NCBI GenBank assembly: GCA_946555345.1
Contig: CAMNSS010000003.1
Location: 8,080 to 72,079 of the forward strand
DNA from: an uncultured Eubacterium sp.
GTDB lineage: Bacteria > Bacillota > Clostridia > Peptostreptococcales > Anaerovoracaceae
Direction of reading: 5' to 3'
Length of the DNA stretch: 64,000 nucleotides
Below the pieces are notes generated by a model that was not told the origin of the DNA, did no database searches, and was given only the letters and a program-made list of their open reading frames with translations. Below are positions 49,753-64,000 of this stretch, piece by piece. Position 1 is the first letter of the stretch. Each line of letters opens with the position of its first letter. The position numbers and the translations under genes are program-made.

Positions 49753-49796
49753 AATTTTTCACGAGCATTTGTTTATGGTATGTATATAACATACGC

Positions 49797-51200: not shown

Positions 51201-51223
51201 ATTATAAAGATGGATGATATAAT
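51195..51223 (+). promoter_or_regulatory. Antisense promoter, cassette 1
   Basis: TTGCAT-N17-TATAAT with extended TG. Confidence 0.6.
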
Positions 51224-51254
51224 AAACATATGCCCCATAAGGGGCGGGGAAGTT

Positions 51255-51362
51255 TTATTTCTTCCCCTTCTTATCTCTGGTAACTATGGTTAATGTTATA
51301 ATCGAAGCGGTCAAACTAACGATTGATGTAACCATGTCTATCAGAGATTTTATTATATCCAT
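51255..51362 (-). CDS. 35-aa hydrophobic peptide A, cassette 1 (type I toxin-like)
   Basis: MDIIKSLIDMVTSIVSLTASIITLTIVTRDKKGKK*; RBS AAAGGAGGTG; TTGACA-N17-TATAAT at 51418-51390. Confidence 0.7.
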   Translation of the reverse strand: MDIIKSLIDMVTSIVSLTASIITLTIVTRDKKGKK

Positions 51363-51675
51363 CTTTCCCCACCTCCTTTCTATATTTCTATTATACGTCG
51401 TTCGGCGTGATTTGTCAAGTGCAAAATTGCTTTTTTTATCATTTTTTCCATTATTTTATATATGGAGAAACGCCCCATGCGCCAGCACAATCATGAAGGA
51501 AAACACAAATGCCATTTTAAACAACACCCTCAATGAAAGGGAATGCAATCGGAGGCGTGCGGCATTGCCATAAACGGACGGCTTTCACAAATCTGCACCC
51601 CAAACAAAACAACGGCGGAACACAAACCGAAATGAACCGCCCCTTTGCTTACAAGTTTACCGCATACCGCATCAC

Positions 51676-52131
51676 TTAGCCTTCACCCAAGCCAGCATCA
51701 AATGAAAGGTACGTTGTCAAAATTGCGATCATCTCCGTATTGGATGGCCTTTCAGCCAACGAACGCTTTGCCATCTCGCAAAGAAAACCGGGATTTCGTT
51801 CCCAGGAAATCCTGCAAATCGTACGGATGTTCCGCTCCACGCATTCAGGGCTTGTGTGATACCTTCTGGCTATGTCAGGGTAAAGCCATTTGGTTACAAG
51901 GAGCAATCGGTCAGGCTCTTGGATGCAAAGCGAAACAGCACAAGCCATATAATTAAACCCTGCATAATTAATCGTAATCCCCAGCCTGAATAAGATGAGC
52001 GACATTCTTTGAAAGGCTTCATGATCCACCTGTCCGCCATCGCCTCCATTTTCACAACCCCCAGAAAGGGCAGCGCCCGCAATTTCTTGCACATTTTCCA
52101 TTTCTTTCGACAATAAATTACTTTTTTCCAT
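51676..52131 (-). CDS. Stand-alone Spo0A C-terminal (DNA-binding) domain protein
   Basis: GFNYM, LLLVTKWLYPDIARRYHTSPECVERNIRT, PSNTEMIAIL; no receiver domain. Confidence 0.8.
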   Translation of the reverse strand: MEKSNLLSKEMENVQEIAGAALSGGCENGGDGGQVDHEAFQRMSLILFRLGITINYAGFNYMACAVSLCIQEPDRLLLVTKWLYPDIARRYHTSPECVERNIRTICRISWERNPGFLCEMAKRSLAERPSNTEMIAILTTYLSFDAGLGEG

Positions 52132-52221
52132 GTTTTTCGCCTCCTCTTTCTTTAAGCATAAAAGAAAAAGACGGAAAATAGGACGCAGGATTTTAGCAGG
52201 CCTGGGCGAAATTACGCCCGT

Positions 52222-52533
52222 TCATAACATTTCCTTGTTTTTCATAAAAAAATCCTGCCGATGATTATCAAAGAAACACCCGACGCTCCCCGCCCGGCGC
52301 TTTCCACGCATAAAAAACATTGCCCCGTCCTCCAACGGGCTTGCTGCGGGCGCAGGCTTTCCATCCTCCAGTTCATCGAGAACCCAGCCAGACGCGGCAT
52401 CCATGCCCATGAGGATAGCTTCTGCCAGCGTGCCGCCTCCACTGACACAACCGGGAAGGTCCGGAACCTCAACAGCATAAGCTCCCTGCTTTTCTTCATC
52501 AGGGTAAAAACAAGCGGGATACGTTAATTTCAT
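52222..52533 (-). pseudogene. hicB: HicB antitoxin, C-terminally truncated
   Basis: MKLTYPACFYP...VPDLPGCVSGG-TLAEA...LEDGKPAPAASPLE, then unrelated sequence in place of the RHH domain. Confidence 0.75.
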
Positions 52534-52570
52534 AGACGAAACTTCCTTTATGATATTGCAGCGCCGGGTT

Positions 52571-52748
52571 TTACAGCCCGGCCTGCTTGAAAATTTGTTT
52601 GACGATTTGCAGGGCAATGTCTCCGGGATGCTTAGGAATTGTGGCCTTGCCCGCCTTTGATGGGTGTGTGTACTGACAATGCGAACCCTTTGCTTTCTTG
52701 TACCGCCATCCATCCGCTAAAATATTTTTTTATTTCCCAAAATCCCAT
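52571..52748 (-). pseudogene. hicA: HicA toxin, frameshifted in an A-run near the 5' end
   Basis: MGFWEIKK / ILADGWRYKKAKGSHCQYTHPSKAGKATIPKHPGDIALQIVKQIFKQAGL*; RBS AAGGAGG. Confidence 0.8.
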
Positions 52749-52977
52749 GCTGCGACCTCCTTGCAAATCACATTATGCGCATAATACGCATAATCATCAA
52801 GCAATTTTTTGCATTTTATTAAAGAATTATAAAATAAAATGCTTCCCCGTTGTTGCTTGGCGAGGCGCTTCCCTTGCCCAAAATCCAGCCTGTTTATCAC
52901 GCCCCAAAAGAGGTCATTATTAACCTTTGCATCCCTTTCAATATCCATATAAGCAACGCATTGCATGAAAGATATCA

Positions 52978-53006
52978 TTGCCTCCGGCATCATTTTTTTG
53001 TATAAT
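52978..53006 (+). promoter_or_regulatory. Antisense promoter, cassette 2
   Basis: TTGCCT-N17-TATAAT pointing into the hairpin at 53014-53034. Confidence 0.6.
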
Positions 53007-53056
53007 AACAAAAAGGCGGTGACAAGCCCGCCCCAAACATTTTCTTAGCCTGCTGC

Positions 53057-53191
53057 CTATTCAGCAGGCTTTTCTTTTTCGAGAAGTTCTGCTACTTTCG
53101 CTTTTGCTTCCGCTAAATCTTCACACCCATCCAGGATCATAGCTACCATTTTCAGTATTTTGCCAAGCTGCTTGTCCGTCATGTTTTCCAT
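53057..53191 (-). CDS. 44-aa helical small protein, cassette 2
   Basis: MENMTDKQLGKILKMVAMILDGCEDLAEAKAKVAELLEKEKPAE*; RBS AAAGGAG. Confidence 0.7.
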   Translation of the reverse strand: MENMTDKQLGKILKMVAMILDGCEDLAEAKAKVAELLEKEKPAE

Positions 53192-53281
53192 TGTTTTCTC
53201 CTTTCTCTGCTTGCCCAGCAATTAAGTTAATGCCTTAACTTAATTGTATTATACTAATATTGGTATAACTTCAAATATTTT

Positions 53282-53509
53282 TTAAAAATATTTCAATTTT
53301 TCTTCATCCGTTATGACCATCTCTATAATGTCCCCCGGCTGCTTTCTGCACATGATGCAAATTTTATTAAGCGTATCCAACGTTATGCTTTTCCCGGCCT
53401 TTATATTTGTCATTGTCTGGCGCGGCAATAAATTCTCCTTTTGTATCCGCGTCTGGTTAAACCCGTGCTTTTTCATCTCTTCAAAAACATCTATTTTGTA
53501 CCGTATCAC
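53282..53509 (-). CDS. Cro/C1-type HTH protein
   Basis: GTG start after GGAGGG; TMTNIKAGKSITLDTLNKICIMCRKQPGDIIE. Confidence 0.82.
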   Translation of the reverse strand: MIRYKIDVFEEMKKHGFNQTRIQKENLLPRQTMTNIKAGKSITLDTLNKICIMCRKQPGDIIEMVITDEEKLKYF

Positions 53510-53905
53510 TGCCTTTCCCTCCTTACTTTGCAATCGTAACATTCCGGCATACAAACGCCAATGGGTTTTATCCTAAAATTAGTATGATTCTATCAAAACC
53601 GCATTATCTTGGCACATAAGGAGAAATCGTTATTCCCCGTCGCGCCGCAACAGCAATTAGGGGGATGCCGCCTACGATCAGAAGCCAGCCTGCCCGCCAT
53701 CTCCCCAATGGCGATTCCGTGCCAGTTGCAAACCAATCCGGAATTATATTCTTATTGGAAGCCCTGCATCCAGATGTCGACAGGCCTTATGCTGCAGCCA
53801 GCAAACATCGATTGAAACCATTCGCCATAAACGAAAAACACATCAAAAAATAAATTGCGTTTTTATCTTTTCGCCAAACTTTTTTAAAATACGCTGCAAT
53901 ACGCA

Positions 53906-53934
53906 TTGACATATTGTGCAATATGTAGTATAAT
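53906..53934 (+). promoter_or_regulatory. Consensus sigmaA promoter with palindromic operator, cassette 3
   Basis: TTGACA-N17-TATAAT; CATATTG-TG-CAATATG overlaps the spacer. Confidence 0.8.
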
Positions 53935-53997
53935 AAAGATAGTTAAGCGAGATCCATAAGCTTAATGAATACCGGGCAAGCGAGAAAGAAGAACAGC

Positions 53998-54138
53998 ATG
54001 GAAGACATGGACAAAAAGGAAATAAAAGAAGTCATTGAATGGTGTGATGAAAAAGGGCATAGCGAACATGAAATTTTGGATTTAATCAGAAGAATCGTGG
54101 ATGCAAAGCCTAGAAAAGAAGAAAAGCCTAACGAATAG
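53998..54138 (+). CDS. 46-aa small protein, cassette 3
   Basis: MEDMDKKEIKEVIEWCDEKGHSEHEILDLIRRIVDAKPRKEEKPNE*. Confidence 0.68.
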   Translation: MEDMDKKEIKEVIEWCDEKGHSEHEILDLIRRIVDAKPRKEEKPNE

Positions 54139-54216
54139 GCTTCCGGAAAACAGAAAGGGCGGCGGACTTGCCAAAGCCGCCCAGACTGTAAAATATATTG
54201 TATATCATTTGGCAAG
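54124..54216 (+). ncRNA. Candidate structured RNA element (two hairpins plus possible pseudoknot)
   Basis: AAGCCTA/TAGGCTT stem over the stop; GGGCGGC/GCCGCCC stem 54157-82; loop CTTGCCAAA complementary to TTTGGCAAG 54208-16. Confidence 0.5.
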
Positions 54217-54236
54217 AAAAAGGAAGAGGGAAACGG

Positions 54237-54437
54237 ATGCAAAAAGAAAAAAAAGAATTTGACCAGATCAAATACCAAAACAAATTCATCAAAGAAAAGT
54301 ACGACCGCATCAATTTAACCGTACCCAAAGGCGAAAAAGCGGCGATCAAAGAGAAAGCGGAAGCAGCCGGGGAAAGCGTAAACGAATATATAAACCAGGC
54401 CATAAAGAAAAGAATGGAAAGCGGGGAAAATGCTTGA
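54237..54437 (+). CDS. Ribbon-helix-helix (Arc/CopG-like) protein, cassette 3
   Basis: YDRINLTVPKGEKAAIKEKAEAAGESVNEYINQAI. Confidence 0.82.
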   Translation: MQKEKKEFDQIKYQNKFIKEKYDRINLTVPKGEKAAIKEKAEAAGESVNEYINQAIKKRMESGENA

Positions 54438-54845
54438 AAAATGCATTGTTGAAATCCGTTTTATGAAAGCCATGCCGTTTTGCCGCATAAAAAACCGCCG
54501 CCCCTCGATGCCCATCGCATGAGGGGCGGCATTTCACTGCGAGCATCTGTTGCTCCATGCACCCCAGCCTGCAAGAACGGGGCTTTCGCCCGTTTCCAAA
54601 CCATCAAAGCGGGCCTTGCCCGATTTCAGAATTTTCTCTCGTCTGCCAAATAAGCTTGCGTAATTTCCTTTTTTCATGCAGCAAAAGCTTCCCCGGCGTC
54701 TTCTATTTCTTCCACCTCCTGACGATTACTGCGATCAACACGATATCTGCAATAATAATGCCAATGTCCGCTACCATTCCTATGACCTTCATTTTCTTCT
54801 TTCTCTCCTTGTGACGGTCCATGTTGGCAACGAGCCGTGAAAAAG
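54334..54845. repeat. ~0.5-kb direct repeat, copy 1 (copy 2 at 56166-56650)
   Basis: Shared RHH 3' end, GC-rich terminator hairpin, peptide B gene and GAGCCGTGAAAAAG end. Confidence 0.85.
54703..54792 (-). CDS. 29-aa hydrophobic peptide B
   Basis: MKVIGMVADIGIIIADIVLIAVIVRRWKK*. Confidence 0.68.
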   Translation of the reverse strand: MKVIGMVADIGIIIADIVLIAVIVRRWKK

Positions 54846-54853
54846 CGATCTTT

Positions 54854-55057
54854 TTATTCTTCTTGTTCTGCTGCTTCCATTTTATCTTTTACCGCCGAAT
54901 ATACAAACTCATTCACGCTTTGCCCTGCCGCCGCTGCCCTTTCTTTTATAATTGCCTTTTCCCCCTTTGGCACAAGCAATTCCATGCGGTCATAAGTTCT
55001 TTTCTTGTATTCGTTCTGATACTTCACTTGGTCGAACTCTTTTTTTATTTTTGGCAT
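54854..55057 (-). CDS. Ribbon-helix-helix protein, cassette 4
   Basis: YDRMELLVPKGEKAIIKERAAAAGQSVNEFVYSAV; paralog of 54237..54437. Confidence 0.82.
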   Translation of the reverse strand: MPKIKKEFDQVKYQNEYKKRTYDRMELLVPKGEKAIIKERAAAAGQSVNEFVYSAVKDKMEAAEQEE

Positions 55058-55076
55058 TTATGCCCTCTTCCTTTCC

Positions 55077-55179
55077 CTTGCCAAATCGTGTATAATCTAT
55101 TTTACAGATATGGGCGGCTTTGGCAAGTCCGCCGCCCTTTCTGTTTCTTGGAAGCCTTACTATTTATTGAGTAAGGCTT
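55077..55179 (-). ncRNA. Candidate structured RNA element, second copy
   Basis: 10-bp stem over the stop (55152-79), GGGCGGC stem 55112-37 with identical loop, complement at 55077-85. Confidence 0.5.
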
Positions 55180-55300
55180 TTACTTTTTCCTTTGCTTCTG
55201 CAAGGTCTTTACTCTCATTTAAGATTTCAAGAATTTTTCTCGTCTGATTTTCCTCTGCCGTTTCTTTAAGGATTTCACCTACATTCATTTCTTCGTCCAT
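55160..55300 (-). CDS. 46-aa helical small protein, cassette 4
   Basis: MDEEMNVGEILKETAEENQTRKILEILNESKDLAEAKEKVKALLNK*; shares DLAEAK-KV--LL with 53057..53191. Confidence 0.72.
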   Translation of the reverse strand: MDEEMNVGEILKETAEENQTRKILEILNESKDLAEAKEKVKALLNK

Positions 55301-55364
55301 GTTTTTTTCCTTTCCCTGCCGCCCAGTTATTTGTTAAGTTTATGTATCTCCCTTAACTGTCTTT

Positions 55365-55393
55365 ATTATACAACATATTTCGTACTATGTCAA
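55365..55393 (-). promoter_or_regulatory. Consensus sigmaA promoter with direct-repeat operator, cassette 4
   Basis: TTGACA-N17-TATAAT; CATATTTCGTACTA occurs twice. Confidence 0.8.
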
Positions 55394-55539
55394 TACATAT
55401 TTCGTACTAATTAAAAAAGCATAATTTTTTTATGAGGAGAGGAAGGTATGAATATGCAATATATATTACGTAAATTAGATAATACATATTAGCAATACGT
55501 AATTTATGTAATATAATATGCATTGTAAGGCGGTTGGTT

Positions 55540-55716
55540 ATGAAAGGCAAAGAGCTTGTAAAGCTGTTCAAAAAAGATGGCTGGGAAGCGACCAGAGTAA
55601 GAGGAAGCCATCATGTGATGAAAAAAGGCAATTAGGTTGAAGTAATCCCAGTACATAGCACCGGCATACCAATCGGCCTGGCAAATAAAATACGAAAGCG
55701 GGCAGAGCTTAAATAA
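55540..55716 (+). pseudogene. hicA: HicA toxin with internal amber stop
   Basis: MKGKELVKLFKKDGWEATRVRGSHHVMKKGN*VEVIPVHSTGIPIGLANKIRKRAELK*; TAG at 55633-35. Confidence 0.82.
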
Positions 55717-55751
55717 ACCTAGCATCGCTTTGATTGAAGGGAACGCATATT

Positions 55752-56126
55752 ATGTTAAAAGTATATCCTGCCATATTTCATGAAGAAGACGGTTTCCGGG
55801 TCGAGTTCCCGGACCTTGATGGCTGCAATGCCTGTGGAAACACCCTTGAGGAAACTATGGAGCTTGCGCAAGAGGCGCTTTGCCTTTATCTTGCTACGCT
55901 TGCAGAAGAAGACCTTGAAATTCCTTTCCCATCACCCATAAAAGACATAAAAACCGACGGCTTTGTATCATATGTTTCCACAAACATGGATAAGTACCGC
56001 AGAAATAACAAGGCGGTTAAAAAAACGTTATCCATACCGCAATGGCTCGCCGATGAAGCAGAAAAAAATAATCTTAGCCTGTCCAAGGTTTTACAAGAAG
56101 GATTAAAAACCCGTCTTGGATTATAA
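55752..56126 (+). CDS. hicB: HicB antitoxin, intact
   Basis: YPAIFHEE, VEFPDLDGC, AQEAL, C-terminal KAVKKTLSIPQWL...SLSKVLQEGL. Confidence 0.9.
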   Translation: MLKVYPAIFHEEDGFRVEFPDLDGCNACGNTLEETMELAQEALCLYLATLAEEDLEIPFPSPIKDIKTDGFVSYVSTNMDKYRRNNKAVKKTLSIPQWLADEAEKNNLSLSKVLQEGLKTRLGL

Positions 56127-56165
56127 CGACAAAAGCCCCCATCGCCAGGGCTGGCCGCAAAATAA

Positions 56166-56650
56166 AAAAAGCGGCGGCCAAAGAGAAAGCGGAAGCAGCT
56201 GGGGAAAGCGCAAACGAATATAGAAACCAAGCCATAAAGAGAAAAATGGAGAGCGGGGAAAATGCTTGAAAACCGCACTGACAATCTCCTTTTTGTTGAA
56301 GCCATGCCGTTTTGCCGCATAAAAGAAACCGCCGCCCCTCGATGCCCATCGCATGAGGGGCGGCGGCATTTCACTGCAAGCATCTGTTGCTCCATGCACC
56401 CCAGCCTGCAAGAACAGGGCTTTGCTGATTCCAGGATTTCCGCTCGTCCGCCAAATGAGCTTGCGCGACTTCCTTTTTTCATGAATCAAATGCTTTCCCA
56501 GCGCCTTCTAGTTCTTCCACCTCCTGACGATTACTGCGATCAGCACGATATCTGCGATAATAATGCCAATGTCCGCTACAATTCCTATGATCTCCATTTC
56601 CTTCCTCCTCTCCCTGTGACGATTTATATTGACAACGAGCCGTGAAAAAG
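56166..56650. repeat. ~0.5-kb direct repeat, copy 2 (begins with an RHH 3' fragment)
   Basis: Aligns with 54334-54845. Confidence 0.85.
56508..56597 (-). CDS. 29-aa hydrophobic peptide B, cassette 5
   Basis: MEIIGIVADIGIIIADIVLIAVIVRRWKN*; RBS GAGGAGG. Confidence 0.72.
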   Translation of the reverse strand: MEIIGIVADIGIIIADIVLIAVIVRRWKN

Positions 56651-56657
56651 TTATCAT
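56629..56657 (+). promoter_or_regulatory. Antisense promoter, cassette 5
   Basis: TTGACA-N17-TATCAT directly before hairpin 56665-87. Confidence 0.7.
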
Positions 56658-56690
56658 TCTCTTAGGGCGGGGCTTTCGCCCCTGCCCTCC

Positions 56691-56810
56691 TTACTCAATC
56701 AGCTTATCAATCAGTGTTATGATTGCGCTGATGAGCTGAATTAAAACCGTGACGAGGATGATTTTTTCAACGTTGGTATCCTCTTTGCGGTTTTTCTTTT
56801 TCCTGCCCAT
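56691..56810 (-). CDS. 39-aa peptide A, cassette 5
   Basis: MGRKKKNRKEDTNVEKIILVTVLIQLISAIITLIDKLIE*; RBS AAGGAGG; TTGACA-N17-TATAAT at 56892-56864. Confidence 0.75.
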   Translation of the reverse strand: MGRKKKNRKEDTNVEKIILVTVLIQLISAIITLIDKLIE

Positions 56811-56938
56811 TGTTCCTGCCTCCTTTTTGTGATATATTTAAGTTAATTTCTTAACTTGGTTATATTATATCTTATTTTTATGAGATTGTCAATGTATTTT
56901 TCTTATTTTTATGAGATTTTGAATGGAGGGCAAAACCT

Positions 56939-57154
56939 GTGTTTTGGGAACGTTTTTACAGTATGTGCGTTGCAAAAGGCACAAAGCCAAACCCTGTTGC
57001 CAAAGAAATCGGCATTTCTTCTGGAATTGTAACTAAATGGAAAAATGTTGGGACACTCCCTAATGGTGAAACCTTAATTAAAATCGCCGACTACCTCGGC
57101 TGCTCCGTTGACTACCTCCTCGGCAGGACGGACAAACCAGAAGTAAACCGTTAG
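56939..57154 (+). CDS. Xre HTH repressor, divergent, cassette 5
   Basis: VAKEIGISSGIVTKWK...LIKIADYLGCSVDYLLGRTD; RBS GGAGG. Confidence 0.88.
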   Translation: MFWERFYSMCVAKGTKPNPVAKEIGISSGIVTKWKNVGTLPNGETLIKIADYLGCSVDYLLGRTDKPEVNR

Positions 57155-57230
57155 GTTTCTTTTTGTTTCCTTTCCCTGCCATCAGGATTGCAGGCAATGC
57201 GCCGTTCATTTCCTGCCCCCTTCTTTATAT

Positions 57231-57471
57231 TATACAGTTTCGTCAGTTTTCCCGTTCCGTTTTGGCGGGCTGGTTTCCCTTTGCAAGCAGGCATTCAAGC
57301 CCGCATCCCAGGACGTCCGCTATTTCCTTCCCGGCCTGCAGTGACGGGTTTTTCGTCCCCCCTTTCAACCTGGCAGAGCATCGCCTGGAAGATGCCCGCC
57401 CGTTCAGCAAGGCGCGCCTGCGTCAGCCCCTTTTCTTCCCTGATGCGGCGGATGTTGTCCCCTGCGCCCAT
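57231..57471 (-). pseudogene. Xre HTH gene with +1 frameshift in a G6 tract, cassette 6
   Basis: MGAGDNIRRIREEKGLTQARLAERAGIFQAMLCQVERG / TKNPSLQAGKEIADVLGCGLECLL; tract at 57357-62. Confidence 0.75.
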
Positions 57472-57560
57472 TATCCATTCCACCTTCTTGCGATATAGAC
57501 AATTACTGACAGATAAAAAACCACTTCAATTCCTTTAAAAACCCAATACAAAATATTCAT
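57471..57560 (-). CDS. 29-aa hydrophobic peptide B, cassette 6
   Basis: MNILYWVFKGIEVVFYLSVIVYIARRWNG*; stop overlaps the Xre ATG (TAATG). Confidence 0.68.
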   Translation of the reverse strand: MNILYWVFKGIEVVFYLSVIVYIARRWNG

Positions 57561-57593
57561 GTCCGCCATCCTTCCTTCATTAAAATATTTATA

Positions 57594-57622
57594 TTGACAA
57601 TGCGCCTCGAAAAAGTTATCAT
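57594..57622 (+). promoter_or_regulatory. Antisense promoter, cassette 6
   Basis: TTGACA-N17-TATCAT before hairpin 57630-52. Confidence 0.7.
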
Positions 57623-57652
57623 TTCCGTAGGGAGGGGCTTTCGCCCCATCCC

Positions 57653-57784
57653 TTACTCAATGAGTTCTTTGATGATTTCCATCAGTATCTCAATGAGCTC
57701 AAGTATTGCGATTGCAAGAAGTATGTGTTCTCTGTGTGAACTCTTCTTGCTTTCGCTTTTTTTGCGCTTCTTTTTCCTGCCCAT
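57653..57784 (-). CDS. 43-aa peptide A, cassette 6
   Basis: MGRKKKRKKSESKKSSHREHILLAIAILELIEILMEIIKELIE*; RBS AGGAGG; TTTACA-N17-TATAAT at 57866-57838. Confidence 0.72.
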   Translation of the reverse strand: MGRKKKRKKSESKKSSHREHILLAIAILELIEILMEIIKELIE

Positions 57785-57910
57785 TGCTTTTTGCCTCCTG
57801 TTCTGGTATATTTTAGTTAATTTCTTAACTTGGTTATATTATATCATGCTATTACGTGATTGTAAATACTTTTTTCATGTTTTAGCGTGATTTTTTAGGA
57901 GGGGTGTGTC

Positions 57911-58138
57911 ATGTATGATTTAGAACTAATTGCTTTTCGCATAAAACAAACTTCAAAAGCCAAGAAAATTCCCATGAAAACCCTTCTTTCAGAATGCCAT
58001 CTCGGCATTAACGCCGTATCTGAAATGGCAAAAGGAAAGACCATGTCTTCTATAAATCTCGCCAAAATCGCCGACTACCTCGGCTGCTCCGTTGACTACC
58101 TCCTCGGCAGGACGGACAAACCAGAAATTAATAAATAA
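57911..58138 (+). CDS. Xre HTH repressor, divergent, cassette 6
   Basis: C-terminal KIADYLGCSVDYLLGRTDKPE; RBS AGGAGG. Confidence 0.85.
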   Translation: MYDLELIAFRIKQTSKAKKIPMKTLLSECHLGINAVSEMAKGKTMSSINLAKIADYLGCSVDYLLGRTDKPEINK

Positions 58139-58182
58139 AAAACAAGCCCGCTTTTTCTTTGCCGCCTATCCGTCTCCCCAGC

Positions 58183-58335
58183 CTACCGCCTAACCAAATC
58201 CCTGACGATGCACCCCAGCAACGCCAACGCATTCAACGAAACAGCCACTTTACAAAACACCGTCCATTCAAGCGTTATTGCTATTACCAGATTTACGCCT
58301 AATGCCCCTGCCAGCCAGTTTCTTGCCTTGTTCAT
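58183..58335 (-). CDS. 50-aa two-TM peptide B, cassette 7
   Basis: MNKARNWLAGALGVNLVIAITLEWTVFCKVAVSLNALALLGCIVRDLVRR*; RBS GGGAGGG. Confidence 0.65.
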   Translation of the reverse strand: MNKARNWLAGALGVNLVIAITLEWTVFCKVAVSLNALALLGCIVRDLVRR

Positions 58336-58353
58336 GATAACCCTCCCTATCTA

Positions 58354-58382
58354 TTGACTTATCTATTACGATATGATAGACT
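58354..58382 (+). promoter_or_regulatory. Antisense promoter, cassette 7
   Basis: TTGACT-N17-TAGACT before the GC hairpin near 58389-58415. Confidence 0.5.
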
Positions 58383-58425
58383 TTTTACAAGGACGGGGGC
58401 TTCCGCCCCTGCCCTTGGCTATCCT

Positions 58426-58527
58426 TTAGGACTTAATAGCTGTTATCAAAGCGGCAATGGTGGCAACACTTTGGATAACGATATTTGCTATTTCCTTTTT
58501 GGATAGCTTTTCTTTTTCATCTTTCAT
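58426..58527 (-). CDS. 33-aa peptide A, cassette 7
   Basis: MKDEKEKLSKKEIANIVIQSVATIAALITAIKS*; RBS AAAGGAG; TTGACA-N17-TATAAT at 58589-58561. Confidence 0.7.
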   Translation of the reverse strand: MKDEKEKLSKKEIANIVIQSVATIAALITAIKS

Positions 58528-58677
58528 ATCGTTTTCTCCTTTCCTCTTGTCTGTAATTTTATTATAACTCTACTTTATGTAGATGTCAATACTTTTTGTA
58601 AACTTTTTTTAATTTTTGTATTGATTTTTTCTACTTTATGTAATATACTTTTCTATACAGGGAGGATTTTTCTAATT

Positions 58678-59340
58678 ATGAATGATGATCAATATAAAAG
58701 AATTTTTTCCGAAAACCTAAAGAGATACATGGCGTTAAATAACAAAAACCAAATAGATTTGATTAATGATTTAAAACTCAATAAATCCGCTGTTTCTACA
58801 TGGTGTAATGGAACAAGGCTTCCAAGAATGGATAAGATTGAAATTTTAGCAAAATACTTTAATGTCAATCGCTCTGACCTGATAGAAGAACATGATTTCA
58901 CTAATAATGCCACCGGCGGCCTCAATCCCTGCGGCAATACAGCCCCCCTCCCAGCGGAGAAAATCCCCCTGCTGGCCGGATTAGCCAATGGAGAACTTTT
59001 GTTCTACGGCGAGGACAGGGAAAGCTATGTCCTCGCAGGCACGGGCATTGACGCTGATTTCTGCCTCAAAGCCAGGGGGGACAGCATGATTGGCGCCAGG
59101 ATACTCGACGGGGACATCGTATTTATCAGAAAGACCAGCACGGTGGACAACGGGGAAGTTGCCGCCGTTGCAATGGACGATGAAGTGTCATTAAAACGGG
59201 TTTATTATTTCAAAGACGAAAGCCTGCTGATGCTCCTGTCCGAAAATCCGCAATACCCGCCGGAGTGCTATAAGGGCGGGCAACTGGATCACATACGGAT
59301 TCTCGGCAAGGCCGTTGCCTTCCAGGGCAGTATCATATAA
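58678..59340 (+). CDS. CI/LexA-like repressor (Xre HTH plus S24 peptidase), divergent, cassette 7
   Basis: VSTWCNGTRLPRMDKIE HTH; GDSM (catalytic Ser), DGDIVFI, SLKRV (catalytic Lys), SENP; cleavage-site-like LAG. Confidence 0.92.
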   Translation: MNDDQYKRIFSENLKRYMALNNKNQIDLINDLKLNKSAVSTWCNGTRLPRMDKIEILAKYFNVNRSDLIEEHDFTNNATGGLNPCGNTAPLPAEKIPLLAGLANGELLFYGEDRESYVLAGTGIDADFCLKARGDSMIGARILDGDIVFIRKTSTVDNGEVAAVAMDDEVSLKRVYYFKDESLLMLLSENPQYPPECYKGGQLDHIRILGKAVAFQGSII

Positions 59341-59610
59341 GCGATGCCAGAGAAATTTGCCTTTCAGCCAAATGTTTCACCGCCTTCGTAAAATCATTGC
59401 TGCCTTTTATTTGTAATCACGTTAGGATGTTGTCTCACAGTGAGGATTTCAGCCTCCCTGTGAAGGCTTTGCGGCTAGCTCGTCCAAAATCTCAATTAAC
59501 ATTTTTAAATGTTCGTTGGGATTTTTTATTATTTTACAATATGATAATTTACAAAAGGCGCTTTGCAAAGAAATAAACGGGCTGCACAACAGTTTCAGCC
59601 CGTTTGTTTC

Positions 59611-59796
59611 TTATTTCTGTAATTCCTGGCAGACACAATCGATTCCTTTCCTGATGATATCGGTTTTTGTCATCCCGGTTTTTTCCATGCAAAATCTTAT
59701 CTTTTGCATATCTTCTTCGGAAAGCCTGAAACTTTCCCGGTAGCTTTTAGGATTGTCAGTAGGCCTGCCCATCCGTTTCTTTTCTATTTTCATCAC
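59611..59796 (-). CDS. RHH/CopG-like small DNA-binding protein, cassette 8
   Basis: MGRPTDNPK..ESFRLSEED...TGMTKTDIIRKGI. Confidence 0.78.
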   Translation of the reverse strand: MMKIEKKRMGRPTDNPKSYRESFRLSEEDMQKIRFCMEKTGMTKTDIIRKGIDCVCQELQK

Positions 59797-59805
59797 CTCT
59801 TGACC

Positions 59806-59869
59806 CTTGCCATGATAAACATATATATGATAATATATATTTAGTAATTGGGCGGTGGCAAGCCCGCCC
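59806..59869 (-). ncRNA. Candidate structured RNA element, third copy
   Basis: GGGCGG/CCGCCC stem with loop GCTTGCCA; complement TGGCAAG at 59812-06 just before the RBS. Confidence 0.45.
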
Positions 59870-59898
59870 TTTACTGTTTTGCTGGGTTATGCCCCTTT

Positions 59899-60054
59899 TT
59901 AGTCTTCCAAAGTGCTTTGAAGGTTGTCCAAAATCTTTTCAAGCCTTTGGTTTTTCTTTTTTTCATCCGTTTCTTCCTTTGCCTCTTTCAGGTCGTCTAT
60001 CAGAAATCGGATGAACCCGTTGAACTGCTTGTCTGTCATTCCCATGCCCTGCAT
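59899..60054 (-). CDS. 51-aa helical small protein, cassette 8
   Basis: MQGMGMTDKQFNGFIRFLIDDLKEAKEETDEKKKNQRLEKILDNLQSTLED*; MTDKQ shared with 53057..53191; TTGACT-N17-TATAAT at 60145-60117. Confidence 0.72.
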   Translation of the reverse strand: MQGMGMTDKQFNGFIRFLIDDLKEAKEETDEKKKNQRLEKILDNLQSTLED

Positions 60055-60158
60055 ATTGTCTCCTTTCCGGCTTCTTGCCTGCCTTACTTGTTAAGTTTTC
60101 CCTTAACTGTAATTATATTATACATTATGTTATGACAAAAGTCAAGAGGTTTTGAAAA

Positions 60159-60401
60159 TTATTTATGAAATTCTTCAAGGTCGCTGACCCTATGGTTTAC
60201 GACTTTTATCTTTTCTTTATTAATGCCCACCGCCTGTTCAAGCAGATAAGTGCGCTCCACGAGGTTGTTGTGCTTGTCCACTTTCTTTTCAAGTTGCCCG
60301 ATCCTGTAGCCTGTCAGCCTGCTCGACGCAATCACGCCGAACAGGGAGCCTAAAAGACCCCCCGCCGCCGCAATGGCGGCAACGATGATTTCCGTGTCCA
60401 T
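60159..60401 (-). CDS. Phage lysis-module membrane protein (TM plus coiled coil, XhlA-like)
   Basis: N-terminal TM, LEKKVDKHNNLVERTY coiled region; follows the endolysin. Confidence 0.6.
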   Translation of the reverse strand: MDTEIIVAAIAAAGGLLGSLFGVIASSRLTGYRIGQLEKKVDKHNNLVERTYLLEQAVGINKEKIKVVNHRVSDLEEFHK

Positions 60402-60412
60402 AGCTCCCCCTC

Positions 60413-61291
60413 CTACAGCCTGCTGTTGATGTAGCGCTGCCATGCCCTGACGGTTTTTGCTCCCATGTATCCGTCAATCTGCCCGCACGGGAAGCCTTTG
60501 CCCTGCAAAAGCCCCTGCATGGCCGTGACAGTCTGCTTTCCTGCCTTGCCGTCCGGCGCTGCCCCTGCCAGCCCCTGGATTGCCCGCACCATTGGCGAAC
60601 CGTTACCTGTTTTCCCGAAAGACCACGAAGACACAAGGCAGTTTGGCAAATACTGCTTACAGCTTATGAGCTGCCCTGACACGATGCCGTCAGCAGGCGT
60701 CCCCATCACCGCCTGGGTCTTCCTTGTGGTGTCCTTCCCCCACTTGCCATCCTCATCCAGCTTCCCCGGCAGCCTGCCTGATGGGGCTTCGCCTGTGTCT
60801 GCCGCGCCGCCCATCGCAGCGGTCACCATATTTAAAAACCTCTGCCATCCGTAAGCCATCGTCCTGTGCGGGCAGTCCTTGCCGCTCCAGTCCTTGTGCC
60901 GCCTTACCCGGTCAATGCCCCAGCCGTAAGATTTTAGCAATGAGGCGATGTACGCCGCCGCATTCTGCTCTGCCGCATCAAACCTTGCGCCCCCGGACCT
61001 CGAGTAGCAGATTTCTATCCCAATCGACTTGCGGTTTCCCGTGCCGTTCCCGCCGTCCCCGGCATGGAACGCATTTCGGTCAAACGGGAGGCAACGCACG
61101 ACTTCCTTGTCATCCACTGCCACGTGGTAAGATGTCGAAGAACTGTTGTTCCTCATGTAATTCGCCTCGTTCCTTGCGCTTGCGTCGTTTGCCGTGTTAT
61201 GCACCGTGACGTACTGCGGCGTCATTTTGTACGGGCTTTTCTTCCCGTACTTGCCGGACGGTACCGGCAGGTCAATTATCGTGTATGGCAT
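60413..61291 (-). CDS. Endolysin, N-acetylmuramoyl-L-alanine amidase (Amidase_2, XlyA-like) with PG-binding repeats
   Basis: TVHNTANDASARNE, HAGDG, SIGIEICYS, HKDWSGKDCPH; DG-x2-G-x2-T repeats. Confidence 0.92.
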   Translation of the reverse strand: MPYTIIDLPVPSGKYGKKSPYKMTPQYVTVHNTANDASARNEANYMRNNSSSTSYHVAVDDKEVVRCLPFDRNAFHAGDGGNGTGNRKSIGIEICYSRSGGARFDAAEQNAAAYIASLLKSYGWGIDRVRRHKDWSGKDCPHRTMAYGWQRFLNMVTAAMGGAADTGEAPSGRLPGKLDEDGKWGKDTTRKTQAVMGTPADGIVSGQLISCKQYLPNCLVSSWSFGKTGNGSPMVRAIQGLAGAAPDGKAGKQTVTAMQGLLQGKGFPCGQIDGYMGAKTVRAWQRYINSRL

Positions 61292-61313
61292 TTATTTTCC
61301 CTCCATCAAATTT

Positions 61314-61574
61314 TCAACAACCTTTTTTACTTTTGCCCCTGGCGTCCCCATCATCAACGGCTCCACCGTCCGTTTCCCTGCACTCCGGCAGCCCCGCCAC
61401 CGACGTCAGCAGGGACAAAGCCCCAGCCATGAGCGCTGCGGATGCCACAGCGAGCCAATTCACGTCCGTGACCAGCGTAGATGCGCCGATCGTTGCCACG
61501 GCCGCCTGGGCAACCGTCCTGATTGCCCTCGTTGCCGCAGCCTTCCACCATTTTTTGTTTATTGTTTTTGACAT
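61314..61574 (-). CDS. Phage holin (r1t-like)
   Basis: WWKAAATRAIRTVAQAAVA...VNW...LSLLTSVAGLPE. Confidence 0.85.
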   Translation of the reverse strand: MSKTINKKWWKAAATRAIRTVAQAAVATIGASTLVTDVNWLAVASAALMAGALSLLTSVAGLPECRETDGGAVDDGDARGKSKKGC

Positions 61575-61611
61575 TTTCTAAGACCTCCCTTTCATTTCTC
61601 ACCTTTTAGCG

Positions 61612-62784
61612 TTATTCAAAATAAGCGATGTTGCCGCCAAATTGTGCCACGGGTAGCTTGTACATGGGCGTATATCCAAGACCGGTTTTGTAAAATAAAT
61701 ATCTAACGTCCAGTGTTCTGCCTGTGCGAAAATAATCCACAAAAAATCCATTGCAGACGTTATGCCCGCCAGAAAAAGACCAAACCACTTTGCCGGCAGG
61801 AGATACCTTTCTTAGCGTAAATTCACCGTCCGACTGGTATATATATCCATCCTCATCCACTGTAAAAGTATGTACATCATAATTAGTCGTGCTGCCTTGC
61901 AGTTCTATCCGGAACACCTTGTTCAGATCCGCATCAAATTTTTCTATGAACCTCTTTGATGCCACGCCTGACTTGCCCATGCTAACGCCTGACACATATA
62001 TATATGCATTATCAGTACATGCTGCCATGATTTTACTGCCTGAAAATGTGTCCGTGTCCGTATTAAGGTTAACATCGTAGCTGGACATCAAAGTGCCTGA
62101 CTCCGAAAACTTTTTCACGCTCTGCAAATCCACAACATAGCATTCTGATCTCTGGGCTAGTCCGCCCACAAACTTGCATTGGTCCGCATTGGTGCTGAAG
62201 CCTCCTAAAAACGCCCCATTAATGTCAAATATCTCAAGGTATTTCCCTGTATTAACGATCAGTATCCTGCCCAACAAATCCATGTTTACCACTAAAGCAT
62301 TAGGGTAGCTTGTATTATTGAAGATCACTTCAACTGCGCTGCTCGAATTAAAAAAATATTTGCTGGGGTTAATTTTATATATGCTTCCATTCTGGTTTAC
62401 CGCATATATGTATCCGCCTAACATTTGCATATGCATAATAAAGTGTGCTGAATTGTTTACTACCGCAAGAGGAGAACCATCGCTTACCTTTTGACCGCTG
62501 TTTGCATTATACCTGGACAAACTGAGCTGGTAGGTAGAGCCATTTTGTACCTGCCTGGCAACATATATGTAGTCATATTGGTCATCATAGCAAACAAATC
62601 GGGGTATATTATCAGCAATCACCAACTCTTGTGCATCAGGCGCAGTCACATGATCCATCACCGATTCAATCTTGGTCACCTTCCTCGGCACATCGGTGTC
62701 CTGGTAATACAAAACGCCCTTTCCACCATCAAAAAATTCAATGCCTTTCTTACCCCCGCCCAGCAAATTCTTTACCTCAAGCAT
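61612..62784 (-). CDS. Putative phage receptor-binding/tail tip protein with beta-propeller-like repeats
   Basis: Repeated D-x2-G-(Y/N)-IY blades; position between tail genes and holin. Confidence 0.55.
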   Translation of the reverse strand: MLEVKNLLGGGKKGIEFFDGGKGVLYYQDTDVPRKVTKIESVMDHVTAPDAQELVIADNIPRFVCYDDQYDYIYVARQVQNGSTYQLSLSRYNANSGQKVSDGSPLAVVNNSAHFIMHMQMLGGYIYAVNQNGSIYKINPSKYFFNSSSAVEVIFNNTSYPNALVVNMDLLGRILIVNTGKYLEIFDINGAFLGGFSTNADQCKFVGGLAQRSECYVVDLQSVKKFSESGTLMSSYDVNLNTDTDTFSGSKIMAACTDNAYIYVSGVSMGKSGVASKRFIEKFDADLNKVFRIELQGSTTNYDVHTFTVDEDGYIYQSDGEFTLRKVSPAGKVVWSFSGGHNVCNGFFVDYFRTGRTLDVRYLFYKTGLGYTPMYKLPVAQFGGNIAYFE

Positions 62785-63610
62785 TTGAAACCTCCTGTTT
62801 CCTTCTCACGCTTAACAATACCGGGATGTCAACCAAAGGGACTTCCCCCAAGGCAGTCAGGACATTTTCCGCAGAAGACCCCATCGGCACCATTGCGCCC
62901 CATGCCTCCGCCTGCTCCGCCGTGCAGTCCACCGGCTCAATTCCCACATCGTAGGCGCTTTGCGGGTATGCTTCCTCGAAGCTGTATGTCTTTGATTCCG
63001 CATCCCAGTTTCCTGCCGCAAGCGTCATGGCCGTTTTAACTGCCGCTTTTTCAAAGCCCTCGCTTTCCAGCTCTTCCACCATGCCGGAAACCACGGCTTT
63101 CTTCCCGTCAAACCACTGCATGAACTGCTGGTTCACGGCTTCAAAATTTGCCGACACGTCAGCAAAAATATTGTCCAGCACCAGCGTCGGCGCATCAATG
63201 GCAAACCCGGAAACCGCCGCCCCGTCCCACTGGAAATGGCAGAACGGCATCTGGTATACATGCCCGCCTGCATCCAAGTCTTCCTGTACCAGGCCAGCAT
63301 CATCCAGAACTTTTATCTTTCCCTGCCTGAACTCCTCAATAGTGTTTTCCTTCGACAAATCAATTTCATACACAATGCGGTTATATCCCTCGGCAAAGCC
63401 CTGGGCAGCTTCAACCGTTTCCGCTTCTTCCACGCACAGCATGCGCCCGCAGGCAATGAAGAAGCCCGTGCCGATCGTGACCGTTCCCCCGCTATGCGTG
63501 ACCTGGCATCCCTTGGTAATGCCGCTCCGGCCATTCAGGAAAAAATTCTGGTAATGGGCAAAATCGGCTGAATAAAACGCCTGTTCCGAAAATGTAATCC
63601 CCCTGATCAC
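62777..63610 (-). CDS. Phage distal tail/baseplate protein
   Basis: MIRGITFSEQ...GCQVT...IGTGFFIACGR pattern of Firmicute siphovirus tail proteins. Confidence 0.6.
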   Translation of the reverse strand: MIRGITFSEQAFYSADFAHYQNFFLNGRSGITKGCQVTHSGGTVTIGTGFFIACGRMLCVEEAETVEAAQGFAEGYNRIVYEIDLSKENTIEEFRQGKIKVLDDAGLVQEDLDAGGHVYQMPFCHFQWDGAAVSGFAIDAPTLVLDNIFADVSANFEAVNQQFMQWFDGKKAVVSGMVEELESEGFEKAAVKTAMTLAAGNWDAESKTYSFEEAYPQSAYDVGIEPVDCTAEQAEAWGAMVPMGSSAENVLTALGEVPLVDIPVLLSVRRKQEVSNA

Positions 63611-64000
63611 TGTCTTCCAACCCCTTTCAGTTTTTCTATAAGCCCAACCTTTAACTTTCCAAGCGTTATGTCAATGGCATGGCTTCTGCTGCTGTATGCC
63701 AGCCCCGATATGATGGAATCCTTGATCCCATTTTTTGTTTTCACGCGGCAGGCACGCCCTATGCACAGGTCTTCTGCCCTCACCAGTTTTGATGATGCAG
63801 ACAGCCGGAAACTAATTTTATGCTGGTACGCATTGCTCGCAAACTGGTTTCTCGCTTCCTGCACCATTGCTGCTTCTGTCTCCGCCTGCACCATTATTAT
63901 ATCCGCCGTTCCTTTCGCCCTGTCAGGATCATCCACGTCCTCCGTGATCGTCCTGTCCGTCCGCAGGAAAAACTGCCTGGTGCTTTCATCTGCCCCGGAT
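63607..64000 (-). CDS. Siphovirus Gp37-like minor tail protein, 3' part
   Basis: Frame is open to the right edge; ends ITLGKLKVGLIEKLK. Confidence 0.55.
   Translation of the reverse strand, partial: SGADESTRQFFLRTDRTITEDVDDPDRAKGTADIIMVQAETEAAMVQEARNQFASNAYQHKISFRLSASSKLVRAEDLCIGRACRVKTKNGIKDSIISGLAYSSRSHAIDITLGKLKVGLIEKLKGVGRQ

Follow-up and report, generated by a model that had tools for sequence, protein, structure and literature searches.

Cassettes 5 and 6, two neighbouring units in the accessory terminal region of a gut-bacterium prophage, flanked by its endolysin gene on one side and by host DNA on the other, are mosaics in which a pair of operators and the DNA-binding head of an Xre repressor lie between blocks of conserved sequence. 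Operators and head are in all likelihood exchanged together, as a single module, by recombination in these flanking blocks. This had been proposed in a sequence-only reading of the window (W, the whole 64,000-nt stretch of DNA analysed here), and it is supported by natural recombinants, by the covariation of heads with operators and by a many-to-many association of leaders with heads. The cassettes would constitute a variant of phage immunity-module exchange. Their features are collected in Table 1, where, as in the text, L-numbers (L037, L137 etc.) designate the phage and metagenome loci with which W was compared.

Table 1. Features of cassettes 5 and 6, in coordinates of the window
Feature	Position	Strand	Remarks
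pepA5, 29-aa hydrophobic peptide, basic C-terminus	56508..56597	-	Distal cargo of cassette 5; ORF list
Rightward promoter-like site TTGACA-N17-TATCAT, cassette 5	56629..56657	+	Promoter scan, 11/12 match
GC-rich hairpin GGGCGGGGC-TTTC-GCCCCTGCCC	56665..56687	.	Adjoins pepB5 stop codon; read from sequence
pepB5, 39-aa peptide, basic N-terminus, hydrophobic C-terminus	56691..56810	-	Proximal cargo; ORF list
Left conserved block, cassette 5	56794..56871	.	pepB N-terminal codons, ribosome site, leader hairpin, -10 box
Leftward promoter P_L5, TTGACA-N17-TATAAT	56864..56892	-	Promoter scan, 12/12 match
Operator O5-1, TCTTATTTTTATGAGA	56870..56885	.	Fills P_L5 spacer
Variable module V5	56873..57082	+	Both operators, ribosome site, Xre5 head (helices 1-3, first half of helix 4)
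Operator O5-2, same sequence as O5-1	56901..56916	.	31 bp downstream, directly before Xre5 ribosome site
Xre5, 71-aa Cro/C1-type helix-turn-helix protein	56939..57154	+	
Xre5 right conserved block (tail), encodes KIADYLGCSVDYLLGRTDKPE	57080..57142	+	63/63 identical to 58064-58126
Frameshifted copy of 75-aa helix-turn-helix gene	57295..57483	-	Cassette-6 cargo; partial HTH_3 match
pepA6, 32-aa hydrophobic peptide	57471..57569	-	ORF list
Rightward promoter-like site TTGACA-N17-TATCAT, cassette 6	57594..57622	+	Promoter scan, 11/12 match
pepB6, 43-aa peptide	57653..57784	-	ORF list; gene call in six assemblies
Left conserved block, cassette 6	57768..57845	.	Right-hand side of L037 junction
Leftward promoter P_L6, TTTACA-N17-TATAAT	57838..57866	-	Promoter scan, 11/12 match, extended TG
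Operator O6-1, TCATGCTATTACGTGA	57844..57859	.	Within P_L6 spacer
Operator O6-2, TCATGTTTTAGCGTGA	57875..57890	.	31 bp from O6-1; upstream of Xre6 ribosome site
Xre6, 75-aa Cro/C1-type helix-turn-helix protein	57911..58138	+	
Xre6 right conserved block (tail)	58064..58126	+	Begins at K52, mid helix 4

Conserved blocks and operators

The two repeats on which the sequence-only reading was built are exact, over 31 nt on the left (56841-56871 = 57815-57845) and over 63 nt encoding the C-terminus of Xre on the right (57080-57142 = 58064-58126). An exact match of 63 nt is far beyond chance expectation, and in the 2.85-Mb assembly both blocks are unique to cassettes 5 and 6, even when 5 mismatches are allowed in the shorter and 12 in the longer. 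The helix-turn-helix (HTH) heads are indeed unrelated, with 18% amino-acid identity, and Xre5 and Xre6 can be aligned only across their C-terminal 40 residues. The left-hand identity also holds, and the conserved island is longer than had been given: it extends over 56794-56871, comprising a 19-nt identical stretch (56794-56812) that covers the N-terminal codons of pepB, and a leader hairpin, AAGTTAATTTCTTAACTT, at 56840-56857. The 31-nt block had rightly been taken for a -10 and leader element; however, it belongs to the leftward promoter of the peptide genes, not to a rightward Xre promoter, and consists of the minus-strand TATAAT -10 box and the 5' leader hairpin of the small-peptide promoter. 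A third conserved island (D6), 56622-56688, is about 85% identical to 57587-57653. It contains the rightward promoter-like site and the GC-rich hairpin, which is kept in cassette 6 and in L038.

As for the operators, the paired sites of the two cassettes do differ, but the absence of any evident similarity, as first described, was an overstatement: they sit in the same register and are identical at 12 of 18 positions. Both are imperfect 16-bp palindromes, TCTYA-N6-TRAGA in cassette 5 and TCAYG-N6-CRTGA in cassette 6; the spacer of the latter, initially counted as seven nucleotides, has six (TCATG-N6-CGTGA). The -35 box, a T-run and the ribosome site are also common to the two operator regions. 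In a whole-genome search each operator occurs as a pair only at its own cassette, and variation of O6-1 among W, L137 and L037 is confined to spacer positions.

Each cassette may be seen as a miniature genetic switch. A Cro-like Xre protein of 71-75 aa, predicted to form a dimer, would bind two copies of its own 16-bp palindrome placed 31 bp apart, the first in the spacer of a leftward promoter that would drive pepB then pepA, the second upstream of the Xre ribosome site. With operators so placed, binding of Xre would silence the cargo and probably limit its own transcript. Geometry and covariation suggest repression and orthogonality between modules. A promoter scan found no consensus rightward sigma-70-type promoter within the Xre intergenic region; the rightward promoter-like sites, matching at 11 of 12 positions, are instead located beyond pepB, and Xre would be transcribed from there. 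That of cassette 5, which faces pepB5 convergently, is the candidate promoter of the Xre5 transcript.

Under the leftward promoters lies a cargo of genes for peptides of 29-43 aa, together with a small HTH gene. This last gene, frameshifted in W, is intact in L137 (1835-2062, minus strand), with a 1-nt difference in a C-run between the two. The counterpart of pepA5 in this sister phage is called as a 29-aa gene, and pepB5 is called as a gene in independent assemblies. The small peptides pepA and pepB have no match in Pfam, NCBIfam or PHROG and match no known toxin family; with type I toxin-antitoxin loci in view, where the promoter of an antisense RNA runs convergently into the gene of a small hydrophobic toxin, pepB was seen to be convergent with both the promoter-like site and the GC hairpin. 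Searched over the whole of W at gathering thresholds, Rfam returned no match.

The Xre proteins

Xre5 is an Xre/Cro-C1-type HTH protein by its match to Pfam HTH_3 (34.5 bits, cut-off 23). It is assigned to PHROG phrog_8, and its residues 19-62 align with residues 23-66 of the P22 C2 repressor. Xre6, which has 656 relatives in the protein database, matches HTH_26 (23.2 bits, cut-off 22), its score with HTH_3 (16.8) being below the cut-off. In the AlphaFold2 model of Xre6 (mean pLDDT 83) five helices (residues 4-17, 22-28, 35-40, 47-57 and 61-65) form a bundle with helices 2-3 as the helix-turn-helix, and Foldseek places this model at TM 0.65-0.77 to SinR, P22 c2, 434 Cro and C.AhdI. The tail motif CSVDYLLGRTD is invariant in 32 aligned family members, and a text search for DYLLGR in the library of papers used here found no occurrence.

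Several assignments were considered and set aside. Membership of the RstR repressor family (NCBIfam NF041951) fails for Xre5, with 36.9 bits against a cut-off of 80. A type II toxin-antitoxin system, in which an Xre antitoxin is co-transcribed with a toxin of known family, does not fit either, Xre5 and Xre6 standing alone on the plus strand with divergent neighbours; HicA and HicB, encoded at 55534-56126, form a unit of their own. As dimers, the C proteins of restriction-modification systems occupy a pair of neighbouring palindromic boxes that precede their own gene, and they can be sorted into specificity groups. C.AhdI, C.BclI and C.Esp1396I are, like the Xre proteins, HTH proteins, of similar size (about 75 aa) and similar in fold (Foldseek TM about 0.7), but the cassettes, unlike C-protein genes, form a phage array with divergent small-peptide cargo, and there are no restriction or methylase genes among the ORFs of 50000-64000.

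Natural recombinants

The breakpoints that had been predicted at the conserved blocks were found there when homologous cassettes were compared (W with L137 and with L037, L082 with L086). W and L137 are the same phage: their left flanks differ by 1 mismatch in 393 nt, and their right flanks have no mismatch in the first 223 nt and are 97.1% identical over 1.1 kb. Between these flanks the 210 nt of W 56873-57082 are exactly replaced in L137 (1464-1674) by another operator pair and another head, the left breakpoint being at 56872/56873. The replaced segments are 64.5% identical, with 29 of 49 amino acids shared by the heads. As in an immunity module, the specificity unit of near-identical phages has been replaced between conserved flanks. 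The nearest outside relative of V5 is unit 1 of L038 (79%), above the allelic L137 module (70%). The change is a single clean replacement whose donor is not among the sampled sequences: in viral contigs, the best match to the L137 module has 70% amino-acid identity. Hypermutation by a diversity-generating retroelement was rejected as the source of the difference because of indels, substitutions of all types and the 64.5% identity, and further because another phage carries a module closer to that of W.

Two other cases affect whole units. L037 has lost an exact 974-nt unit relative to W by a crossover within 56794-56812, in the left island, and an identical pepB5 body is now under operator 6 and Xre6. 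In a phage pair unrelated to W, one unit of exactly 361 nt distinguishes L086 from L082; the crossover lies inside the tail block, and L086 encodes a chimeric tail. Both of these mapped crossovers are unit deletions, not swaps. In the array of L038 three operator-plus-head modules, each different, are separated by repeats of one identical stretch made up of tail, stop codon and leader block.

A common scheme would account for these events. A stretch of some 210 nt, which comprises both operators and codes for helices 1-3 plus the N-terminal half of helix 4, behaves as a single inherited specificity module. On its left lies the block with the start of the cargo, its ribosome site, the leader hairpin and the -10 box; on its right, the block that encodes the rest of helix 4, helix 5 as well as the C-terminal tail (IADYL-CSVDYLLGRTD-PEVNK). 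Homologous recombination in the blocks would then replace the module, as between W and L137, delete or re-pair whole units in tandem arrays, as in L037 and L086, and homogenise the flanks of units within one phage.

Covariation across the family and rival explanations

The family was surveyed in the viral and metagenome loci fetched in this analysis. Its 85 unique genes fall into 30 head clusters; for 40 of the genes an operator pair was detected (spaced by 30-31 bp in 27/40), with 25 distinct half-sites. The type of head and the half-site of the operator vary together (Mantel r = 0.67, reached in 0/2000 permutations), and the O5 operator fits the consensus of its head type, ATCTCA-N6-TGAGAT. 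Leaders and heads are associated many-to-many: one leader is combined with 7 or more types of head, and a single head type with 5 or more leaders. The tail 32-mer has no match and the leader 27-mer one match in representative genomes, a distant blastn of 56400-58200 against INPHARED phages gave no match, nor did a first metagenome scan with a 33-mer of pepB5/left block, and the cassette is absent from 60 relatives of the host genome.

It could be argued that the modules are inherited vertically, the leader and tail blocks alone being copied between neighbours by short-tract gene conversion. Leaders and tails are indeed far more alike within a phage than between phages: for tails of the same phage the median fraction of identical codons is 0.80, for tails of different phages 0.41-0.45, with a maximum of 0.72 among the latter (Mann-Whitney p = 1.7e-5). 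Homogenisation of the tails of paralogs that share a phage but have unrelated heads extends to synonymous sites in at least 6 phages, and breaks off at the same codon. The identity tract of the W tails is short, 63 nt bounded on both sides, the last four codons being different, and both have a Gly at a position occupied by Asp, Asn or Glu in almost every relative. However, the W and L137 flanks are near-identical and their difference is exactly the 210-nt module, so it is the module that changed; moreover the W module is nearer to that of L038 than to its own allele. Homogenisation probably acts too, yet probably does not suffice as the sole explanation, a role in which we find it unlikely.

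Ordinary divergence of old paralogs, with selection keeping the promoter, the leader and an essential helix and no recombination at all, is very improbable. To be sure, the tail motif is invariant, the leader core TTAACTTGGTTATAKTATA is conserved across 36 viral contigs, and also in phages with unrelated regulators, so that part of the left-block identity may reflect functional constraint, and gradual co-divergence of heads and operators is also seen within clusters. But selection on the protein leaves synonymous sites free, and the two W tails are identical in 21 of 21 codons, synonymous positions included, where tails of different phages have a median of 41-45% identical codons for the same residues; in other phages the tail nucleotide sequence varies freely, and in three natural recombinants the breakpoints fall within the blocks. 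An assembly artefact is scarcely credible: L037, L086 and L137 come from metagenome assemblies, and assemblers might create chimeric joins at the exact repeats of 19, 31 and 63 nt in the cassettes, but the L137 form recurs at 99.9% in two other samples (L139, L140) and that of W at 100% in several more (L131-L136), the L137 module is novel sequence and not a rearrangement, and the junctions of L086, between mismatches 2 nt apart, and of L037, in the 19-nt repeat, were judged too short for false joins at usual k-mer sizes.

Comparison with known systems and significance

The closest counterpart is the exchange of immunity regions in temperate phages. In lambdoid imm regions, and in the heteroimmunity of CTXphi with its rstR and ig-2, a repressor and its operators diverge, or are exchanged for others, as a set within the conserved surroundings of otherwise near-identical phages. 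The cassettes resemble such immunity regions of temperate phages in that repressor and operators change jointly between conserved flanks, yielding new specificities. They also have paired operators overlapping a divergent promoter beside the repressor gene, in both cassettes. Unlike classic immunity regions, however, they form several tandem units in one prophage, with homogenised flanks, and what they would regulate is not the lytic operon but, at the end of the prophage, a set of genes for small membrane peptides; the array lies where the endolysin gene meets host DNA. Furthermore, the right-hand joint cuts through the DNA-binding domain, halfway along helix 4, which means that only the head travels with the operators, not the whole gene. 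Exchange of immunity regions is documented in the temperate phages P2, P2 Hy dis and WPhi (PMC1904268, PMC3448106), and operators of P2 type are paired repeats near the promoter, as in cassettes 5 and 6.

A study of Cluster A mycobacteriophages describes the co-evolution of repressors and stoperators, with specificity evolving along a spectrum of genetic diversity (PMC6550527). As there, repressor recognition and sites covary across a large natural family, with many specificities and graded intermediates; the cassettes differ by their sharp recombination joints, their portable 210-nt modules and their single-domain Cro-like Xre proteins of 71-75 aa. In Gifsy-1 and Gifsy-3, short repressors resembling the CI N-terminus have different operators and shared antirepressors (PMC3121763). 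They set a precedent for a variable DNA-binding output combined with a conserved handle. In the cassettes, where no antirepressor was identified, the conserved Xre tail might, by way of speculation, be such a shared handle.

Short-tract gene conversion of the flanks probably operates alongside module replacement. A further step, that the blocks are kept as recombination linkers and that the prophage end works by recombinase-free cassette exchange of mutually orthogonal mini-switches, is unlikely as a joint reading. If it were true, gut phages would trade and stack mini-switches that hold toxic membrane peptides silent; the tail (CSVDYLLGRTD-PEVNK) could be the handle by which one antirepressor or protease fires all cassettes together; and the arrays would be a programmable weapon and immunity bank for phage-phage conflict.

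In sister phages this spot is occupied by another unit, which provides a natural kit of probably non-cross-reacting switches; some pairs of modules differ little, and the W half-site TCTYA and those of L137, TCTAA/TCTGA, differ at one position, so that cross-recognition is possible for this pair. The family consists of dozens of repressors of 71-78 aa, each with its own palindrome of 16-18 bp in a fixed promoter scaffold, making it a candidate set of orthogonal switches for synthetic biology (25 distinct half-sites in 40 cases), and its repressor-operator pairs are a data set for rules of helix-to-base recognition. The recombination joint in mid helix 4 of the HTH domain is a natural splice point for chimeric repressors. 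The variable end of gut prophages appears to be built of tandem recombining mini-switches rather than loose single genes, and three natural variants of one phage offer a concrete case of the re-assortment of regulatory specificity.

Two identical blocks and the module between them

Cassettes 5 and 6, two predicted mini-switches at the prophage end, each combine small peptide genes (pepA, pepB), an operator pair and an Xre gene. The sequence-only reading had described a 31-nt block (56841-56871 = 57815-57845) and a 63-nt block (57080-57142 = 58064-58126) as identical between them; both identities are exact, and in the window's assembly (2.85 Mb, 36 contigs, ~49% GC), searched with 5 mismatches allowed for the first and 12 for the second, both are confined to these two cassettes. 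A sliding comparison displays islands of identity against a near-random background (see table). The recognition regions are as dissimilar as had been claimed: the heads (the N-terminal DNA-recognition parts) of Xre5 and Xre6 are 18% identical, and BLASTP restricts its alignment to the last 40 residues. The tail blocks are 57% GC, the heads 37-40% and the operator regions 25-34%. An unusual Gly codon common to both tails makes a small terminator-like hairpin possible on the minus strand of the tail block (57100-57086).

Both Xre proteins, encoded on the plus strand, are of the Cro/C1-type helix-turn-helix class (Pfam HTH_3/HTH_26 above cut-off; phrog_8), and residues 19-62 of Xre5 can be aligned to the DNA-binding domain of the P22 C2 repressor (its residues 23-66). 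An AlphaFold2 model of Xre6, using 32 family members as input (mean pLDDT 83), has five helices (4-17, 22-28, 35-40, 47-57, 61-65), its closest solved folds (TM ~0.7) being a chain of 9iaq (an arbitrium lysis-lysogeny complex), SinR, P22 c2, 434 Cro and restriction-modification controller proteins. Because the 63-nt block begins at K52 of Xre6, the head comprises helices 1-3 and half of helix 4; the tail begins midway through helix 4 and continues through helix 5 into a C-terminal extension modelled at low confidence.

The 31-nt block does contain a -10 box and leader, as first read, and lies on the minus strand as part of the leftward promoter of the peptide genes. Downstream of the -10 box on that strand come a hairpin (AAGTTAA-GAAA-TTAACTT), a ribosome site and then a small peptide gene. 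In both cassettes the first operator copy occupies the spacer of this promoter, while the second immediately precedes the Xre ribosome site. The operators O5 (cassette 5, TCTYA-N6-TRAGA) and O6 (cassette 6, TCAYG-N6-CRTGA) are imperfect 16-bp palindromes, the O6 spacer being N6 and not N7 as initially given; their half-sites differ, but to see no evident similarity was too strong, because they share a register and 12 of 18 positions. In a whole-genome scan each occurs as a pair solely at its own cassette. Given where the operators lie, the separation of the paired sites by about three helical turns, and the covariation described below, each Xre is predicted to repress its own leftward promoter and the modules are predicted not to cross-react. 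Since a promoter scan gave no consensus rightward promoter in the Xre intergenic region and one was found beyond pepB, Xre transcription may run antisense across pepB.

Features of cassettes 5 and 6 and their surroundings
Feature	Position	Strand	Remarks
Leftward promoter, cassette 5	56892-56864	-	TTGACA-N17-TATAAT, 12/12 match
Leftward promoter, cassette 6	57866-57838	-	TTTACA-N17-TATAAT, 11/12 match
Rightward promoter, cassette 5	56629-56657	+	11/12 match; beyond pepB, with GC hairpin
Rightward promoter, cassette 6	57594-57622	+	11/12 match; beyond pepB, with GC hairpin
pepB5	56691-56810	-	small peptide gene, downstream of cassette-5 leader
pepB6	57653-57784	-	small peptide gene, downstream of cassette-6 leader
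Operator O5	56870 and 56901		two copies, 31 bp apart
Operator O6	57844 and 57875		two copies, 31 bp apart
Xre5	56939-57154	+	71 aa
Xre6	57911-58138	+	75 aa
Identity island	56622-56688		~85%, cassette 5 vs 6
Identity island	56794-56871		exact runs of 19 and 31 nt; ~90% overall
Intergenic scaffold			~67% identity, cassette 5 vs 6
Xre head			40-55% identity in sliding comparison, cassette 5 vs 6
Xre tail			100% identity, cassette 5 vs 6
Cassette 7	58183-59340		
Endolysin gene	60413-61291		array flank; tail genes beyond

Natural recombinants

That operator and DNA-binding head are exchanged jointly by recombination at the blocks, as had been proposed, is well supported by natural recombinants, their breakpoints and covariation. 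Breakpoints at the blocks were found in homologous cassettes of the sister phages L037 and L137 and of another pair, L082/L086. L037 (IMG/VR), ~98% identical to the window across 50223-55699 and 57587-60500, carries a single hybrid cassette in which the body of pepB5 is fused to the cassette-6 ribosome site, leader, operator and Xre; the join lies within a 19-nt identical stretch (56794-56812 = 57768-57786), and the window is longer there by exactly 974 nt. One cargo peptide thus has operator and repressor partners that differ between the two sister phages. L082 and L086, near-identical phages of another lineage, differ by exactly 361 nt: in the Xre of L086 the head matches the first Xre of L082 and the final codons match the second one, the switch falling inside the tail block between mismatches 2 nt apart.

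L137, a 52-kb contig from a different sample, was reached via the L037 variant of Xre6. Its flanks differ from the window by one mismatch in 56480-56872 and none in 57083-57305 (97.1% identity over the next 1.1 kb), whereas the intervening 210 nt (56873-57082) are exchanged for 211 nt at 64.5% identity, with ATCTAACTTTAGTTAGAT and ATCTAACTTTTTTCAGAT as operators and a head that agrees with the Xre5 head at 29/49 residues. The replacement starts and stops at the inner edges of the 31-nt and 63-nt blocks. Independent assemblies reproduce the L137 allele at 99.9% (L139, L140) and the window allele at 100% (four), 99.9% (one) and 98.3% (one; L131-L136). The window module is 79% identical to that of the unrelated phage L038 vs 70% to the allelic module in L137, for which no donor was found among viral contigs. 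Half-sites of the window and L137 alleles differ at a single position, so these two may cross-react.

Covariation, leaders and tails

Across 85 unique genes, 30 head clusters each have their own palindrome; all 20 members of the Xre5-type cluster (57-85% identical) have ATCTCA-N6-TGAGAT. Among the 40 genes with a detected operator pair, which represent 25 distinct half-sites, the identity between half-sites is 0.44 where heads are <30% identical and 0.84-0.90 where they are >50% identical (Mantel r = 0.67, matched in 0/2000 permutations). It is well supported that operator pair and recognition part are inherited and exchanged as one unit; within clusters, heads and operators also co-diverge gradually.

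Leaders reassort: the window's type pairs with 7 head clusters, three further metagenome loci have its core with additional operators, and the Xre5-type head pairs with at least 5 leader types. Co-resident units in one phage have a common leader type. Tails accompanying unrelated heads have a median identity of 0.60 (maximum 0.86) between phages; within a phage the values are 1.00 (window), 0.95, 0.94, 0.905, 0.905, 0.87 and 0.86, and the break is always at the same codon. Counting codons for identical residues only, the identical-codon fraction of tails has a median of 0.80 within phages vs 0.41-0.45 between them, GC3-matched pairs included (p = 1.7e-5). Leader and tail blocks are well supported as real recombination substrates, and module replacement and flank homogenisation probably both act.

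The wider family and known systems

Xre5 searches returned >500 relatives in viral contigs, and the protein database holds 656 of Xre6, mostly 75 aa. Many fetched loci have a common layout (leftward -10, palindrome, -35, second palindrome 30-31 bp on, ribosome site, Xre), the short Xre ending in CSVDYLLGRTD-PEVNK. In L038, three different operator-plus-head modules are separated by identical repeats of a single block made up of tail, stop codon and leader; this conserved-variable-conserved array lacks cargo genes between its Xre genes. Two or three short Xre genes are directly consecutive, again without cargo, in L038 (2640-3400), L040 (2495-3200) and L082 (2369-2960); each has a leftward promoter and its own operators upstream, so transcription from that promoter would enter the upstream Xre gene in antisense orientation.

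The leader core TTAACTTGGTTATAKTATA (56851-56869, 57825-57843), consisting of the -10 box and first transcribed bases of the leftward promoter, was retrieved from 36 viral contigs (loci L002-L037) and one mouse-gut Clostridia genome. Some of these contigs have ribbon-helix-helix regulators, or none recognisable, and no Xre, which suggests a function besides that of a plain -10 box. Another motif, TTGCACAAAA, recurs ahead of the Xre ribosome site at a distance of ~10-15 nt (L002, L004, L005, L013, L038, L041 and others) and is absent from cassettes 5 and 6.

The modules resemble classical immunity-region exchange among temperate phages, as in the lambdoid imm regions and CTXphi rstR/ig-2. Further examples are P2, P2 Hy dis and WPhi (PMC1904268, PMC3448106), and repressor-site co-evolution resembling that of the Xre modules is described for Cluster A mycobacteriophages (PMC6550527). 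Unlike in these systems, the DNA-binding domain itself contains the right-hand joint, one prophage holds a stack of several units whose flanks are homogenised, and the regulated genes encode small peptides, not a lytic operon. A conserved "handle" has a precedent in the Gifsy repressors, which have different operators and common antirepressors (PMC3121763); no partner of this kind came to light for the Xre cassettes.

Neighbouring features

Host acetyltransferase genes lie below 49752, and three tandem 75-nt repeats (49785-50015, 89% identical) mark the border with the prophage array. The cassette peptides matched no known family in Pfam, NCBIfam or PHROGs. Cassette 7 shares the layout of cassettes 5 and 6, again with a pair of small peptide genes, a hairpin and a leftward promoter (58589-58561, 12/12 match), but its regulator is a complete LexA/CI-type repressor that includes a Peptidase_S24 domain. 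At 57295-57483 (-) the window has a helix-turn-helix ORF whose 75-aa counterpart is intact in L137 (1835-2062, -); an additional base in a C-run has frameshifted the window copy. In L037 a 437-nt deletion (55695-56131), whose ends show AAAGC microhomology, has removed the HicB antitoxin gene and left the HicA-like short ORF in place; L137 carries both genes. A ~520-nt repeat (54334-54858 and 56166-56663, 84-98% identical) contains a second copy of a pepA-type peptide gene and GC-rich hairpins, its second copy being without 31 nt that L037 has.
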